A stretch of DNA of 63,172 nucleotides from a virus (lineage: Duplodnaviria > Caudoviricetes), in the IMG/VR virus record IMGVR_UViG_3300009156_000028, positions 1-63,172 of that record; one strand, 5' to 3'. Under the pieces are notes generated by a model, which saw only the letters and a list, made by a program, of their open reading frames with translations, was not told the DNA's origin and did no database searches. Both the position numbers and the translations under genes were made by a program. Shown piece after piece: positions 38,002-48,721 of this stretch; position 1 is the stretch's first letter, and every line of letters begins with the position of its first letter.

Positions 38002-38200
38002 AAGGACTATTGAATCTCCAATGCGCCTTCTGATCAAGACGGTCGGAAGCGCTGAAGCGGTTGATATCAGTCCTGTAGAAGCCGTAAACATCGCTATTGA
38101 GTGCGCCTTGCAAGCCGGCAAACAGGACGTAGCCGAAAACATCGCCAACAATAGAAAGGAAGCCGAGCAGATCATCAGCGGCTTGCTCGGCTTGATGTAA
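37982..38200 (+). CDS. hypothetical protein
   Basis: 72 aa; TAATG-coupled to next gene. Confidence 0.5.
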   Translation: MLSEFARRTIESPMRLLIKTVGSAEAVDISPVEAVNIAIECALQAGKQDVAENIANNRKEAEQIISGLLGLM

Positions 38201-39189
38201 TGAAAATTCGATACGTACCGATGCGCTTCAAGGCGGCTACGCTCTCCGTGATCCGCCGCGCTAATGAGATCATTGACGAGTTTCAAGCTCTCGGAATTAC
38301 GCTGACGGTCCGCGGTCTGTACTATCAGTTCGTAGGTCGTGATTGGTTCCCTGATAATCGGACCTGGACTTGGACCGGGAAGAGTTGGCGCAAGGACCCG
38401 AAGGGAACGAAGAATGCTCAGCCAAATTACGATTGGCTTCAGGCTATCATGACCAATGCCCGGCTCGCCGGTCTCGTTAGCTGGCTGGCGCTAGAGGATC
38501 GGACCCGGAACCTCTTGACTCACTCGCATTGGGAGACTCCGGCGGACCTTATCCGATCCGCCGCGGAGCAATTCCGAGTTGACCGCTGGGCTGAGCAGAA
38601 GCGCCGGGTTGAGGTCTGGGTGGAGAAGGACGCCCAGGCGAGTACGATCCAGCCGCACTGTTCCGATCTTGACGTGCCCTTCTTCGCCTGCCGCGGCTAC
38701 GTCTCCGCGAGCGAGATGTGGGAGACTTCAAACCGGCTCCGCGGCTACATCGACGGCGGCCAAGAGGTAGTCATCATTCACCTAGGTGATCACGACCCGT
38801 CCGGTATGGATATGACCCGCGACATCCGCGACCGGCTTGAGATATTCCTGAAACATCGAGCGGCGGACCTAACCATCAATCGTATCGCGCTCAACATGGA
38901 TCAGGTGAAGAAGTACAATCCACCGCCGAACCCGGCCAAGACTACGGATTGCCGCTTCAAGACCTATCGGGACGAGTATGGGGACGAGTCCTGGGAGCTT
39001 GACGCGCTGAATCCGCAGATGCTCATCAACCTAGTCCGCGAGCGCATCCAGTCCTACGTCAACCCCAAGCTGCTGAAGATGGCGGAGACCGAAGAGAGGC
39101 GTGGCCGGGAGCGGCTAACGTCCGTGAGTGAGCATTGGGACAAGGCGACGGCGGCGGTTGACAAGGCTAAGAAGAGGAAGCGCAAATGA
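38200..39189 (+). CDS. TOPRIM protein of topoisomerase VI-A/JetD-like type
   Basis: LTVRGLYYQ, VWVEKDA, CRGY.S, GDHDPSG.D, WELDAL. Confidence 0.75.
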   Translation: MKIRYVPMRFKAATLSVIRRANEIIDEFQALGITLTVRGLYYQFVGRDWFPDNRTWTWTGKSWRKDPKGTKNAQPNYDWLQAIMTNARLAGLVSWLALEDRTRNLLTHSHWETPADLIRSAAEQFRVDRWAEQKRRVEVWVEKDAQASTIQPHCSDLDVPFFACRGYVSASEMWETSNRLRGYIDGGQEVVIIHLGDHDPSGMDMTRDIRDRLEIFLKHRAADLTINRIALNMDQVKKYNPPPNPAKTTDCRFKTYRDEYGDESWELDALNPQMLINLVRERIQSYVNPKLLKMAETEERRGRERLTSVSEHWDKATAAVDKAKKRKRK

Positions 39190-39290
39190 ACGTAGAGCGG
39201 ATGTTGTACCAGAGCATGGAAGGCGACGTTATATGGCGGCTGCTATCGGTTCTAGTCAACAAGCGGTCTATCGAAAGTTTGTACCAATGA
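39186..39290 (+). CDS. 34-aa ORF (not in ORF track)
   Basis: ATGA overlaps at both ends: MNVERMLYQSMEGDVIWRLLSVLVNKRSIESLYQ. Confidence 0.4.
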   Translation: MNVERMLYQSMEGDVIWRLLSVLVNKRSIESLYQ

Positions 39291-46264: not shown

Positions 46265-46828
46265 ATGCGTTGGCGCACCATTTATCTTGACAAGGACGGA
46301 GTATTGGCGGACTTTCACCGGGCGGCGGCTCTCGCTCATAACAAGGACTACTCCGCCGCCAACTGGCCGCGAGCCGGGAAGGACCTTTCAGCTGTCTTAG
46401 GATTCAACTACAGCACTCCGGAAGGCTTCAAGGACTTCTGGGAGCCGATACGGTACAACGTCTATTTCTGGACAGCCATTAAGCCGTTCCCTTGGGTTGG
46501 AACGTTGCTTCGTCTAGCCGAGAGCTTCGCGGAAGAAGTCGTCATTTGTACCGGACCGGCTTCTCAAACGTCCGCGGAAGTCGCCGGAAAGCTGGACTGG
46601 CTTCGCGAGCATCGCATAGACAACGACGTTATCATCTGCCGGAAGAAGTATCGGCTTGCCGCTTCCGACTGTCTGCTGATTGACGACTGGGAGCGGCACG
46701 TAGATGATTTCAAGGCTCACGGCGGTCAATCTATCCTCTTTCCTCAACCCTGGAATCGAGATCACGCGCTTGCGTCCGATCCAATCCAACACGTAAGGAG
46801 TTTGCTCAATGGCTTTTCTCTGTCGTAA
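46265..46828 (+). CDS. HAD-family 5'(3')-deoxyribonucleotidase
   Basis: YLDKDGVLADF, K..WL, LLIDD, QPWN. Confidence 0.85.
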   Translation: MRWRTIYLDKDGVLADFHRAAALAHNKDYSAANWPRAGKDLSAVLGFNYSTPEGFKDFWEPIRYNVYFWTAIKPFPWVGTLLRLAESFAEEVVICTGPASQTSAEVAGKLDWLREHRIDNDVIICRKKYRLAASDCLLIDDWERHVDDFKAHGGQSILFPQPWNRDHALASDPIQHVRSLLNGFSLS

Positions 46829-48131
46829 CGTGAATGACGCTTTCCGTTGCCTGGTTCAGTACGTCCGCGACTCTGACCGGGACCTACGCTCAACCGTAGT
46901 CCGGACATCGTCGCGAGTAGGTGACGTGATTCAGATCGTTGAGCCGACGATTATCACCTACCAACGGCCGATGGAGCGGGTCCTCTTCAACGAGTCGCGA
47001 GACGCTAACCCGTTCTTTCACTTGTTTGAGGCGCTGTGGATGCTCGCCGGTCGTAATAACGTTGCGCCGCTCGCCTACTATTCAAGCAACATCGCGGAGA
47101 TAGCGAGCGATGACGGCAAGACCTTCAACGGAGCCTACGGCTACCGCTGGCGTCACGCAGTTCACGGGGTCGGTCAGAAGGGCAATGCTTGGTACGGCGG
47201 AACTATTCAGGATCATCGCGACGAAGTTGATCAACTCCGTATCCTCATCGACCACTTGAAGAAGAAGCCGGACAGCCGCCGCGCAGTTCTCCAGATGTGG
47301 AACGTTGAGGATGACCTTCTGAAGGTTGAGGCGACGAAGGACGTTTGTTGTAACACCTGCGTGTACTTCCTACTGAGAGATGACGGAGTTTGTAACCGCG
47401 ACCACTCGCACCCGGCTTGCGTTTGCGCTAACAAGGGGCACAATTGTCTGAAGCTTGATATGACGGTTTGTAACCGGAGCAACGATCTGGTTTGGGGAGC
47501 GCTAGGAGCCAACGCGGTTCACTTCGCCTTCCTCTTGGAGTATATGGCAGCGCAGATCGGAGTTGCGCCGGGACTGTATCATCAGTTCACTAACAACCTT
47601 CACTGCTATACGGCTCCGAACCGTTGGGAGCCTGAGAAGTGGATTGAGGACTTGACCCCTGACTATTACGGCGGCGGAGAGATTAGAGCGGACGGCTATG
47701 CGTATCAGGTTCGGCCGTTCCCTCTCGTTGACGACCCGGCGCTGTTTGACGCTGAGGTTGTCGAGTTTGTCAACTACCATATCGGAGAGGGCGCTGCCTG
47801 CTCGCACGACTATCACGAGCCGTTCATCAAGAACGTCGCATGGCCAGCTGCCTGCGCCTTCCGGTCGCATAAGGCTCGCGACTACTCTGGCGCTCTCCGT
47901 TGGTGCGGAGAGATTGAGGCGGGAGACTGGCGCATCGAATGTACTCGTTGGATCCAGAGGAGACGAGCGAGATTTCAGACGATGAAGGAAGGCGCGAACC
48001 CGTACCTGGTCAACGAACTAGAGCGACGGAAGGCGGAAGGTCTCCCGATAACTCAAGCTCAACACGCAACGGAGAAGCGCGGGGACTATGCCGAACGAGA
48101 GGAAGGCTTCTGGACTGGCGGTGCCGAATGA
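46809..48131 (+). CDS. thymidylate synthase homologue, probable dUMP hydroxymethylase
   Basis: SRVG, RDANPFFH..EALWML.G, AYGYRWR, SRRAVLQMW, DVCCN, NRSND..WG..GAN (Asn suggests dUMP substrate), NNLHCY. Confidence 0.85.
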   Translation: MAFLCRNVNDAFRCLVQYVRDSDRDLRSTVVRTSSRVGDVIQIVEPTIITYQRPMERVLFNESRDANPFFHLFEALWMLAGRNNVAPLAYYSSNIAEIASDDGKTFNGAYGYRWRHAVHGVGQKGNAWYGGTIQDHRDEVDQLRILIDHLKKKPDSRRAVLQMWNVEDDLLKVEATKDVCCNTCVYFLLRDDGVCNRDHSHPACVCANKGHNCLKLDMTVCNRSNDLVWGALGANAVHFAFLLEYMAAQIGVAPGLYHQFTNNLHCYTAPNRWEPEKWIEDLTPDYYGGGEIRADGYAYQVRPFPLVDDPALFDAEVVEFVNYHIGEGAACSHDYHEPFIKNVAWPAACAFRSHKARDYSGALRWCGEIEAGDWRIECTRWIQRRRARFQTMKEGANPYLVNELERRKAEGLPITQAQHATEKRGDYAEREEGFWTGGAE

Positions 48132-48721
48132 ACTGGCAGCCAGTCCTCTACAAATCTGATTTTGTCTGCCGATATGAGGCCGGAGAGTTTGGGAACCGCG
48201 CCCCCACTTGGGCCGGCTACCCAGAGTGGCTACAGGATAATCCGCCGCCTCATCACCTTGTGGAAGATGATAACGGCTGGCGCGGTTATCCTCTGTTCCA
48301 TATTCGGAATCGGATTGCCAACGCTATGACTTGGTATAATGTACCGTCGTACCAAATGGAAGAGACTTGGACGGCGGCTTGTCAACAATTTGAGGCGAGT
48401 CGGCTGTACATCTCCGCGATGGCCCCAACTGAGCGGACGGTGTTACAGGGAGAGGTTCTGAATGACGTTGGCGGTCTCGTTCTCCGATACTCGCGAGTCA
48501 AGAAGCCGATGCGCAAGGCGCTTGCGGAAGGAGAGCAGACCGCGAACGGACTACGCGCCAGGTTCTTACTTCAGACTGCTTGCAATGCGAAGAGTTGGGA
48601 GTGGCTGAAGATCCTCTTGGAAAGGTATCCTGACCACGTAGTTGAATTCAGCTGCTATTCTTGCTGTTGGGGAACGGAGCCGGGGTTCAATACCGTATTT
48701 TGGGAAGTCAGAAAGTATTAA
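48128..48721 (+). CDS. hypothetical protein coupled to the dUMP hydroxymethylase
   Basis: ATGA overlap; EFGNR..TW, LQGEV, VVEFS, TVFWEVRKY. Confidence 0.6.
   Translation: MNWQPVLYKSDFVCRYEAGEFGNRAPTWAGYPEWLQDNPPPHHLVEDDNGWRGYPLFHIRNRIANAMTWYNVPSYQMEETWTAACQQFEASRLYISAMAPTERTVLQGEVLNDVGGLVLRYSRVKKPMRKALAEGEQTANGLRARFLLQTACNAKSWEWLKILLERYPDHVVEFSCYSCCWGTEPGFNTVFWEVRKY

Follow-up and report, generated by a model that had tools for sequence, protein, structure and literature searches.

A predicted M6-type thymidine hypermodification cluster in a distant, uncultured phage lineage and its 197-residue ATP-grasp-like protein

The plus-strand block at 39287-48721 of the IMG/VR virus record IMGVR_UViG_3300009156_000028 (Duplodnaviria; Caudoviricetes) is probably a thymidine hypermodification system of the type described in phage M6, a judgement that includes the reading of its extra genes. 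The window analysed here is the whole 63,172-nucleotide stretch, one linear virus record with a CheckV completeness estimate of 87%. An earlier, sequence-only reading of this DNA had proposed that the phage hypermodifies T, and the prediction is upheld by six M6 orthologues with intact catalytic motifs in a lineage far from M6. Judged by these sequences, the M6-type pathway itself is likely present. Analogy with M6 suggests, with slightly less assurance, 5-(2-aminoethyl)-2'-deoxyuridine (5-NedU) as the predicted end product; the same product as in M6 is expected because no tailoring gene follows the gene for the pyridoxal phosphate (PLP) enzyme. The block ends in a gene for a 197-amino-acid protein that is probably of the ATP-grasp fold and may act on the nucleotide pool.

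In the proposed pathway, a thymidylate synthase homologue would convert dUMP to the 5-hydroxymethyl nucleotide 5-hmdUMP before replication, an NT5C-type nucleotidase would remove dTMP, and 5-hydroxymethyl-2'-deoxyuridine (5-hmdU) would be incorporated into DNA in place of T. A P-loop kinase would then phosphorylate 5-hmdU in DNA to 5-phosphomethyl-2'-deoxyuridine (5-PmdU), and an amino acid:DNA transferase (AADT) would swap the phosphate for glycine to give N-alpha-glycinylthymidine (N-alpha-GlyT). A radical SAM enzyme (rSAM) would turn this into C-alpha-glycinylthymidine (C-alpha-GlyT), which the PLP enzyme would decarboxylate to 5-NedU. The steps from 5-hmdU through 5-PmdU, N-alpha-GlyT and C-alpha-GlyT to 5-NedU are experimental in M6 (PMC8989533). 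The genes assigned to the pathway, with the 197-residue protein, are listed below.

39287-40279, plus strand: HMUDK_hel (formerly aGPT-Pplase1), homologue of M6 gp55 with an accessory helical domain (PF18723, 2e-45, 155.8 bits)
41082-41654, plus strand: P-loop 5-hmdU DNA kinase (5-HMUDK), homologue of M6 gp54 (PF18748, 28.4 bits against a cut-off of 27)
41658-43040, plus strand: radical SAM isomerase of N-alpha-GlyT to C-alpha-GlyT, predicted as the M6 gp53 orthologue (phrog_9252, 2.3e-184)
43387-44214, plus strand: AADT, homologue of M6 gp51 and PaMx11 gp46 (PF18724 ADDT, 3.8e-14)
44216-45115, plus strand: PLP-dependent decarboxylase, predicted as the M6 gp52 orthologue (PALP, 35.3 bits against a cut-off of 35; phrog_7093, 6.5e-66)
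46265-46828, plus strand: NT5C-type 5'(3')-deoxyribonucleotidase (PF06941, 1.6e-12; phrog_2643)
46809-48131, plus strand: thymidylate synthase homologue of 440 amino acids, predicted dUMP hydroxymethylase (PF00303 Thymidylat_synt, 8.4e-20)
48128-48721, plus strand: 197-amino-acid ATP-grasp-fold-like protein, its ATG overlapping the stop codon of the synthase gene (ATGA)

All seven enzyme motifs named in the sequence-only reading correspond to real family matches in Pfam and PHROG scans, each where it had been placed. In M6 (Yuavirus), the corresponding set is gp51 (AADT), gp52 (PLP decarboxylase), gp53 (rSAM isomerase), gp54 (5-HMUDK), gp55 (helical protein) and gp58 (dUMP hydroxymethylase), as given in the text of PMC8989533. 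The window carries the same six families with their catalytic motifs kept, and M6 supplies the best or near-best cultured match to each. Orthology was assessed by tblastn and BLASTP against M6 (L002), Stenotrophomonas phage Bhz59, Rhizobium phage RHph_I65 and PhiJL001. Identity to the M6 counterparts is 57% for the rSAM, 49% for the PLP enzyme, 38% for both the transferase and the synthase homologue, 35% for the helical protein and 27% for the kinase. As in M6, the cluster lies in one co-oriented block adjoining polA and primase, but the gene order differs: helical protein (HEL), P-loop kinase (PK), rSAM, AADT and PLP in the window, against AADT-PLP-rSAM-PK-HEL in M6. The M6 synthase gene is flanked by Nmad5 and an HD nucleotidase, whereas that of the window is flanked by NT5C and the ATP-grasp-like protein.

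The replication genes also differ from those of M6, being unrelated or very distant. The window polA (35720-37756) has at most 23% identity to any cultured phage polymerase. The M6 polymerase matches the window weakly (23% identity, E 9e-8), the M6 primase has no match in it at E <=10, and megablast of the cluster region against 50,697 phage records returned nothing. On these comparisons, the phage backbone is a distant, uncultured lineage, far from M6.

The kinase assignment needed one correction. The sequence-only reading had placed a 5-hmdU DNA kinase at 39287; position and family area hold, but the catalytic identity does not, the gene there encoding the helical accessory protein HMUDK_hel. 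Its open reading frame (ORF) is open from GTG 39128, with ATG 39287 the likely start, and the product is 35-39% identical to its counterparts in M6, Bhz59 and PhiJL001. A helical protein of the gp55 type was dispensable when the M6 steps were reconstituted in lysates (PMC8989533). The 5-HMUDK homologue itself is the protein at 41082, for which only a P-loop kinase had been claimed: it exceeds the PF18748 cut-off with an intact Walker A motif (GTSGSGKTT, GCNGSGKTT in M6 gp54), and its match to gp54 is collinear (27% identity over 180 amino acids, E 6e-13). By orthology, the product of 41082-41654 is predicted to phosphorylate 5-hmdU in DNA.

The two enzymes that would act after the transferase are closest to M6. 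The radical SAM enzyme, correctly recognised at 41658 from its CxxxCxxC motif, matches M6 gp53 across 99% of its length and keeps both CAVGCSFC and a second, C-terminal cysteine cluster (CHGQ...CPPSGCLYCA...RCG) that aligns with M6. In the M6 enzyme the C-terminal cluster is tied to a second Fe-S centre (PMC8989533). The claim of a PLP enzyme at 44216 is likewise borne out, with a PALP score over the cut-off and the Schiff-base lysine of M6 gp52 (K36) kept as K65 in an FSK motif; the true start of this gene may be the internal ATG 44306.

The transferase exceeds the PF18724 cut-off comfortably (53.4 bits against 26.2), and residues 7-273 match the solved structures 25qc (4e-54) and PaMx11 gp46, 8z2m (5.9e-44). 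In gp46 the pocket residues are D24, Y47, Y51, E92, W146, K150, E243, T244, C247, K261, D262 and E265, and the glycine contacts include W146, K150 and D24 (PMC11472151). In the alignment to the structure hit, with numbering counted by eye, all 12 of these 12 active-site residues are identical in the window protein. Statements made here by eye, on motifs or residue conservation, were read off alignments or translations. Because the 12 pocket residues are kept and an orthologue of the N-alpha-GlyT isomerase is present, glycine is the likely donor, which points to a glycine:DNA transferase as the predicted activity.

The synthase homologue groups by sequence with hydroxymethylases and is no ordinary ThyA. 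It scores 71.5 bits against PF00303 (cut-off 24.3), the CMP hydroxymethylase MilA heads its matches in the Protein Data Bank (PDB) at 3.6e-17, a genuine thymidylate synthase reaching 6e-6 at best, and its best cultured-phage matches, at 36-39.5% identity, all come from thymidine-hypermodifying phages. The asparagine noticed earlier at the specificity position is confirmed as N235, which aligns with an aspartate of MilA; at this base-specificity position Asn corresponds to uracil and Asp to cytosine. N235 is invariant across 27 synthase sequences of the clade described below, as are C181, R157/R158, R223-D226, H265 and Y267. The latter residues presumably correspond to the catalytic Cys and the substrate-binding Arg, His and Tyr of E. 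coli ThyA. Hydroxymethyl transfer by this protein is suggested by its relatives and by the fact that the downstream enzymes require 5-hmdU. The adjoining HAD nucleotidase, rightly located at 46265, belongs to the NT5C family and may be a dTMPase that keeps T out of the nucleotide pool.

Two readings in which the cluster makes no 5-NedU can be set against this one. In the less improbable of them, itself quite unlikely, the cluster is partly inactive: the transferase start has been lost and modification ends at 5-hmdU or 5-PmdU, or else the assembly is in error. After the in-frame stop at 43363-43365, none of ATG, GTG and TTG occurs in the transferase frame until past the conserved GDLDPIY motif with its D24 equivalent; GTG 43468 is the earliest of them, and a start there would remove the motif. 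Homologues in related loci are ordinary ORFs of 261-297 amino acids. Yet the reading frame stays open and is conserved throughout from residue 7 onward, active-site residues included, its partner genes are all intact, and ATT 43387 is preceded, 9 nt upstream, by the purine-rich stretch AAGAGAAGG. The start near 43387 assumed in the sequence-only reading is thus the best available, since no canonical start codon precedes the catalytic residues; ATT 43387 is likely the initiation codon, the alternative being a sequence error in the contig at 43363-43470.

The other reading, which we consider very improbable, makes the synthase homologue a dTMP-forming ThyA and lets the kinases act on free nucleotides, with no DNA hypermodification. 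The P-loop protein does score against Thymidylate_kin (26.5 bits, under the cut-off of 27), and methylase and hydroxymethylase chemistry are indistinguishable by sequence alone. Against this stand the nearest solved and phage relatives of the synthase homologue described above and the eight NCBIfam ThyA equivalog models, all of which fall far under their cut-offs (best 54.2 bits against 174.55). Apart from modified DNA, the rSAM, AADT and PLP orthologues are not known to have any substrate (PMC8989533). An ordinary ThyA accompanied by kinase and transferase calls that fail profile searches, the combination named beforehand as fatal to the proposal, is the opposite of what was found: kinase and transferase pass, and the ThyA equivalogs fail.

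Several observations weigh against an active M6-type pathway ending in 5-NedU. Among the profile searches proposed for the cluster, HMUDK_hel, ADDT, PALP and Thymidylat_synt matched over their cut-offs, but Pfam Radical_SAM did not (26.0 bits, cut-off 29.5), the generic model being weak for this branch. The Pfam scores of the kinase and the PLP enzyme barely exceed their thresholds. Without a canonical start, the transferase may be poorly expressed or reflect a contig error. Finally, tailoring or pool genes could sit in the part of the genome that the contig, about 87% complete, does not cover.

The core finding is already known in kind, because M6-like contigs from IMG/VR have been described before (PMC8989533). 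A survey of IMG/VR v2 with 5-HMUDK queries recovered contigs "identical or nearly identical" in content to M6, together with combinatorial variants (PMC8989533). The contigs of Lee et al. (2021; Figure 2, sequences 2-5), which as their text describes them resemble the window, carry 5-HMUDK, aGPT-Pplase2, rSAM and PLP genes near a dUMP hydroxymethylase gene and are predicted to make 5-NedU. Literature searches over text, titles and abstracts, the figures and supplements of PMC8989533 lying outside their scope, found no paper linking an ATP-grasp protein to hmdU pathways.

The 197-residue protein belongs to a large family that family libraries do not capture. A word-indexed search found 375 homologues at E <=0.01, and a scan by profile across 1.84 billion cluster representatives yielded 1,466 at E <=0.001, the family numbering at least 1,466 clusters at 50% identity. 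The protein itself has no match in Pfam, PHROG or NCBIfam, nor in cultured phages by tblastn; the family profile finds nothing below E 0.2 among PDB sequences, and an Atlas search gave only sub-threshold, unrelated rows. Relatedness to Nmad5, the neighbour of the synthase gene in M6, was considered and rejected (hhalign probability 0.1).

The fold assignment comes from a confident AF2 model built with 38 sequences (pLDDT 94.8, pTM 0.86). Among the matches listed by Foldseek against the PDB, all are ATP-grasp enzymes: Ddl, LysX/ArgX, RimK, MdnC, biotin carboxylase and carbamoyl phosphate synthetase (CPS). A search of BFVD is headed by phage 'ATP-grasp domain' proteins, and most of its best rows are ATP-grasp. 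All 50 matches listed by VIA are ATP-grasp folds, and its re-alignment to RimK superposes model residues 2-197 on chain residues 88-264 (Z 8.6, 157 residues, root-mean-square deviation 3.9). By eye, the family alignment shows a basic strand leading into a Gly-rich loop (HIRNRvAGG) and an invariant QGE; the last two strands bear E173 and E193, with R195 after them. Putative active-site residues are K9, R15, R60, E109, E173, E193 and R195. The protein probably has an ATP-grasp fold and, on the model, would comprise the ATP-binding core only.

Four points tell against the fold assignment. The Foldseek scores are modest (best E 1.1e-3, TM 0.42-0.48), and the VIA score lies close to that tool's background, which is Z 7-8. 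Across 38 family members, no ATP-grasp Pfam family is matched at E <=1. R195 stands at what we take to be the position of the usual ATP-grasp metal-site Asn, giving E-x-R in place of E-x-N. Compared with the ATP-grasp superfamily (RimK, Ddl, LysX, synapsin, and the nucleotide-binding domains of PPDK and succinyl-CoA synthetase), the predicted fold shares the ATP-binding core along an alignment of 150-170 residues, but the protein differs in lacking an N-terminal substrate domain and a Pfam profile match, in having Arg at the last metal position and in the association of its gene with genes of the thymidylate synthase type.

Relatives of the cluster were sought through this family. Searches with the single 197-residue sequence, or with that of a 267-residue protein described below, found no closely related loci; a profile search found them. 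The IMG/VR profile scan gave 43 related loci, among which are five pairs with identical last 150 residues in the 197-residue homologue, and 40 of the 43 had a called homologue after ORF calling and clustering. By tblastn with the window proteins, the synthase homologue and primase each match in 41 of the 43 loci, the helical protein in 32 and polA in 28. NT5C matches in 23, the P-loop kinase in 21, AADT in 15, the rSAM in 12 and the PLP enzyme in 10.

Between the kinase or helical gene and the NT5C and synthase genes, these loci carry a variable modification module. The rSAM-AADT-PLP module of the window recurs in about 11 loci. Others hold rSAM and AADT with FAD oxidoreductases, AADT with FAD enzymes, a Mom-family protein, TAGT-like glycosyltransferases with rSAM/SPASM proteins, or unknowns. 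The variable modules may yield undescribed thymidine derivatives. Within L006-L048, a weakly methyltransferase-like gene follows PLP in four loci and a gene for 315-326 amino acids follows it in three. The synthase-homologue ORF is 639-735 amino acids long in L014-L016, L019 and L011, against 440 in the window, which suggests fusions or insertions; in several loci the primase is split into two ORFs. Among cultured phages, the closest helical protein is that of PhiJL001 (L001). At 13637-14455 this phage has a TAGT glycosyltransferase gene (2.7e-53) between the helical protein and the Nmad5/synthase genes, and the stretch examined contains no rSAM or AADT. Judging by these genes, PhiJL001 probably glycosylates hmdU instead of making 5-NedU.

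Across these modules, the 197-residue family keeps constant company. The synthase homologue lies directly upstream of the 197-residue homologue in 32 of 40 loci and within three genes in 38, often with overlapping stop and start codons. A MazG pyrophosphohydrolase gene (Pfam, 1.8e-9) immediately follows the 197-residue homologue in 20 of the 40 loci, and in 28 it lies no more than three genes away. The adjacency of the synthase and 197-residue genes spans at least six types of modification module. The family thus goes with nucleotide-pool genes (NT5C, the synthase and, in relatives, MazG), not with one end product. The sequence-only reading had suggested that this gene might extend the pathway to a different end product; the gene is conserved, but because it occurs with every kind of module, it is not end-product-specific. 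Complex prediction for the synthase homologue and the 197-residue protein gave ipSAE 0.00 in both runs and no verdict either way.

More distant relatives extend the association. ThyX is a flavin-dependent thymidylate synthase, non-homologous to the ThyA type. Its gene lies directly beside divergent homologues (26-40% identity) in L048/L058, L050 and L072; in L048/L058 and L050 the ThyX match is 9.5e-45 and the gene is 77 nt upstream, and in L072 it is 4 nt downstream. An HD nucleotidase gene is directly upstream of the homologue in L069 and lies between synthase homologue and 197-residue homologue in L081 and L103/L104. Two fusions join the family domain to other domains, P0198 to an HD domain (PDB 2gz4, 1.9e-10; YfbR, 0.67) and P0241 to DUF4406 (22.5 bits against a cut-off of 22).

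A further 40 loci outside the first set, including four near-identical pairs, give a looser picture. A synthase homologue is upstream in 16 of them. Neighbours were scanned in 19 of 21 synthase-less loci, those in which the ORF of the homologue itself had been called; the scan covered 63 of 74 neighbour ORFs, the other 11 being ten short ORFs and a long one of 1,234 amino acids. They are mixed: dCMP deaminase, dUTPase_2, Thy1, DUF4406, NUDIX, QueC and PTPS occur once each, DNA_methylase and NADAR twice each. This suggests nucleotide and DNA-modification regions, and is not decisive. Cellular copies occur on contigs of metagenome-assembled genomes (MAGs) labelled DPANN archaea (L051, L053-L056) and in a Chthonomonas MAG of the Armatimonadota (L052). 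In four archaeal contigs, by eye, the homologue sits in conserved synteny between RadB-like ATPase and RpoL-like genes.

A role for the 197-residue protein can be sought among the functions the pathway requires. The pre-replicative functions listed for hmU phages are a hydroxymethylase, a dTTPase, a dTMPase, a dCMP deaminase and a deoxynucleoside monophosphate (dNMP) kinase for hmdUMP (PMC8989533). The module of the clade supplies candidates for the first three in the synthase homologue, MazG and NT5C, respectively. No recognisable dNMP kinase was found among the window ORFs scanned against the family libraries. In tblastn of the window, four phage dCMP deaminases, MazG, HD, Nmad5, ThyX and ribonucleotide reductase gave nothing at E <0.1, with an rSAM positive control that worked; failure to find a dCMP deaminase with these four queries is a point of comparison with M6.

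The 197-residue protein would then carry out an ATP-dependent phosphotransfer, from hmdUMP to hmdUDP. Phosphotransfer on the hydroxymethylase product is favoured by elimination and by the bare ATP-binding core, which is like the modules of PPDK and succinyl-CoA synthetase. We propose only tentatively that the protein is a nucleotide-pool enzyme, possibly an hmdUMP kinase or an enzyme of another ATP-dependent step that works with the hydroxymethylase. An equally speculative extension is that the family, which occurs in phages, DPANN archaea and some bacteria, comprises new minimal ATP-grasp enzymes for 5-substituted pyrimidine deoxynucleotides, with hmdUMP kinase as its function in hmdU phages. 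We know of no nucleotide kinase activity in the ATP-grasp fold.

The distribution also holds evidence that counts against a pool role. The 43 related loci form one viral clade, so the adjacency of synthase and 197-residue genes may be partly inherited. About 20 of the 40 further loci have neither synthase type nearby, and the cellular copies sit among housekeeping genes. A canonical thymidylate kinase (PF02223 over cut-off) is present in two of the five MAGs that carry the family, so the protein does not simply replace Tmk. Displacement of thymidylate kinase by the family was dropped as an explanation, given these two MAGs and a presence/absence profile that would be underpowered, just 5 of the 151 genomes in one archaeal order having the family.

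Alternatively, the pathway could end in another base, with the 197-residue protein as an ATP-grasp amide ligase on the 5-NedU amine or the C-alpha-GlyT carboxylate, or with a 92-residue or the 267-residue protein altering the chemistry; we regard this as unlikely. Classical ATP-grasp enzymes do join carboxylates to amines, the top structural matches include RimK, Ddl, LysX and cyanophycin synthetase, and two genes that follow PLP in related loci are candidates for tailoring (c25, weakly methyltransferase-like, and c28). Uncharacterised amidoligase-like genes are mentioned in M6-like contigs (PMC8989533). However, the 197-residue protein is equally found in loci without AADT, rSAM and PLP that carry TAGT-like glycosyltransferases, Mom-family or FAD enzymes. 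Its gene accompanies those for the synthase, NT5C and MazG rather than those for DNA-level enzymes, and the family also occurs beside ThyX and in cells. The protein has no N-terminal substrate domain of the ATP-grasp ligases, the model aligning solely to RimK 88-264, and the 92- and 267-residue genes are conserved in none of the 43 related loci. For these reasons of context, an amide-ligase role on DNA is less likely than phosphotransfer, and the pool role with 5-NedU as predicted end product is the reading retained here.

The remaining genes in and beside the block, several of which had been taken as possible pathway extensions or as a coupling to attack on unmodified DNA, are the following.

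38200-39189, plus strand: Mini-A type IIB topoisomerase-like protein (5Y-CAP and Toprim), 329 amino acids (phrog_6247 'DNA topoisomerase', 3.5e-102)
40282-41085, plus strand: 267-amino-acid near-orphan with a GIY-YIG-like (T5orf172/MUG113-like) C-terminal half, weak matches only
43037-43315, plus strand: 92-amino-acid ORF, its start overlapping the rSAM stop (ATGA)
45127-45148: GC-rich, terminator-like hairpin (8 pairs, 6 of them GC) between the convergent PLP and minus-strand genes
45174-45650, minus strand: winged-helix protein, 158 amino acids with a Lys/Ala/Pro-rich tail (HTH_24, E 0.0018; MarR, E 0.0083; both under cut-off)
45744-46100, minus strand: 118-amino-acid ORF, uncertain as a gene, with no family and no homologue in related loci
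46170-46142, minus strand: promoter-like site upstream of the 118-amino-acid ORF

The proposed coupling or extension is not supported for these genes: the TOPRIM protein belongs to replication, and the 267- and 92-residue proteins are unconserved. Mini-A proteins are defined by a length of about 300 amino acids, an RxxY/FY catalytic tyrosine, a Glu followed by DxDxxG, and an xWELDAL box (PMC7671362). The 329-residue protein shows all four motifs in its translation (VRGLYY, VEKD, GDHDPSG, SWELDAL) and, so far as the text of PMC7671362 describes phage Mini-A, resembles it in length and motifs with no difference seen. Its relatives span 79 cultured phage records and many host genera, and of the 43 related loci only 2 carry the gene, there located after primase. 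It is part of the replication module and outside the pathway.

The 267-residue protein has a single homologue among 5.8 billion proteins (49% identity) and no match in the phage collection, IMG/VR or the 43 related loci. No GIY-YIG, T5orf172 or MUG113 profile matches it over cut-off; MUG113, which we take to be a member of the GIY-YIG clan, comes nearest at E 0.14 (13.2 bits, cut-off 22.3). Its C-terminal half contains GVY-x11-YLG-x7-R-x3-H, kept in its one homologue, and Atlas leads point to T5orf172/GIY-YIG clusters, all under that tool's bars. Predicted secondary structure fits the beta-beta-alpha-beta-alpha GIY-YIG fold, but the AF2 model reaches a pLDDT of only 43 and was rejected as a structure-search query. 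At the HEL-PK junction, where the gene lies, related loci have other small ORFs or none. The gene is likely a lineage-specific, accessory or possibly selfish, GIY-YIG-like insertion; a T4 EndoII-like role against unmodified DNA finds no support in its conservation. The 92-residue protein also has one homologue among 5.8 billion proteins (54% identity, 87 amino acids) and no family match, and its gene, absent from the 43 related loci, is a lineage-specific insertion.

A minus-strand cassette inside the co-directional cluster had been overlooked in the sequence-only reading. Weak homologues of its winged-helix protein occur at the same spot and on the same strand in L018, L021, L027, L042 and L031, and the cassette is probably a regulator. 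A 336-amino-acid plus-strand ORF at 45138-46148, Leu/Arg-rich and overlying the cassette, was rejected as a gene. Elsewhere in the window, a uracil-DNA glycosylase superfamily protein (PF03167, 1.6e-20) is encoded at 31234-31872, in a phage predicted to swap T for uracil derivatives; genes for a PD-(D/E)XK nuclease (31882-33018) and an AAA_24 ATPase (33487-34347) adjoin it. No tRNA genes were found in the window.

With this cluster, the phages predicted to make 5-NedU gain a distant, uncultured lineage, and the same six genes appear to move as a set between unrelated replication backbones. The clade keeps a conserved frame of polA, helical protein, kinase, variable module, NT5C, synthase, ATP-grasp-like protein, MazG and primase; with at least six modules on this one frame, it is a promising place to look for new DNA bases. 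The 197-residue family is the most useful lead, being large, confidently modelled and tied to two non-homologous types of thymidylate synthase and to dNMP-degrading domains. If the proposed role is true, the family would fill the step from hmdUMP to hmdUDP.

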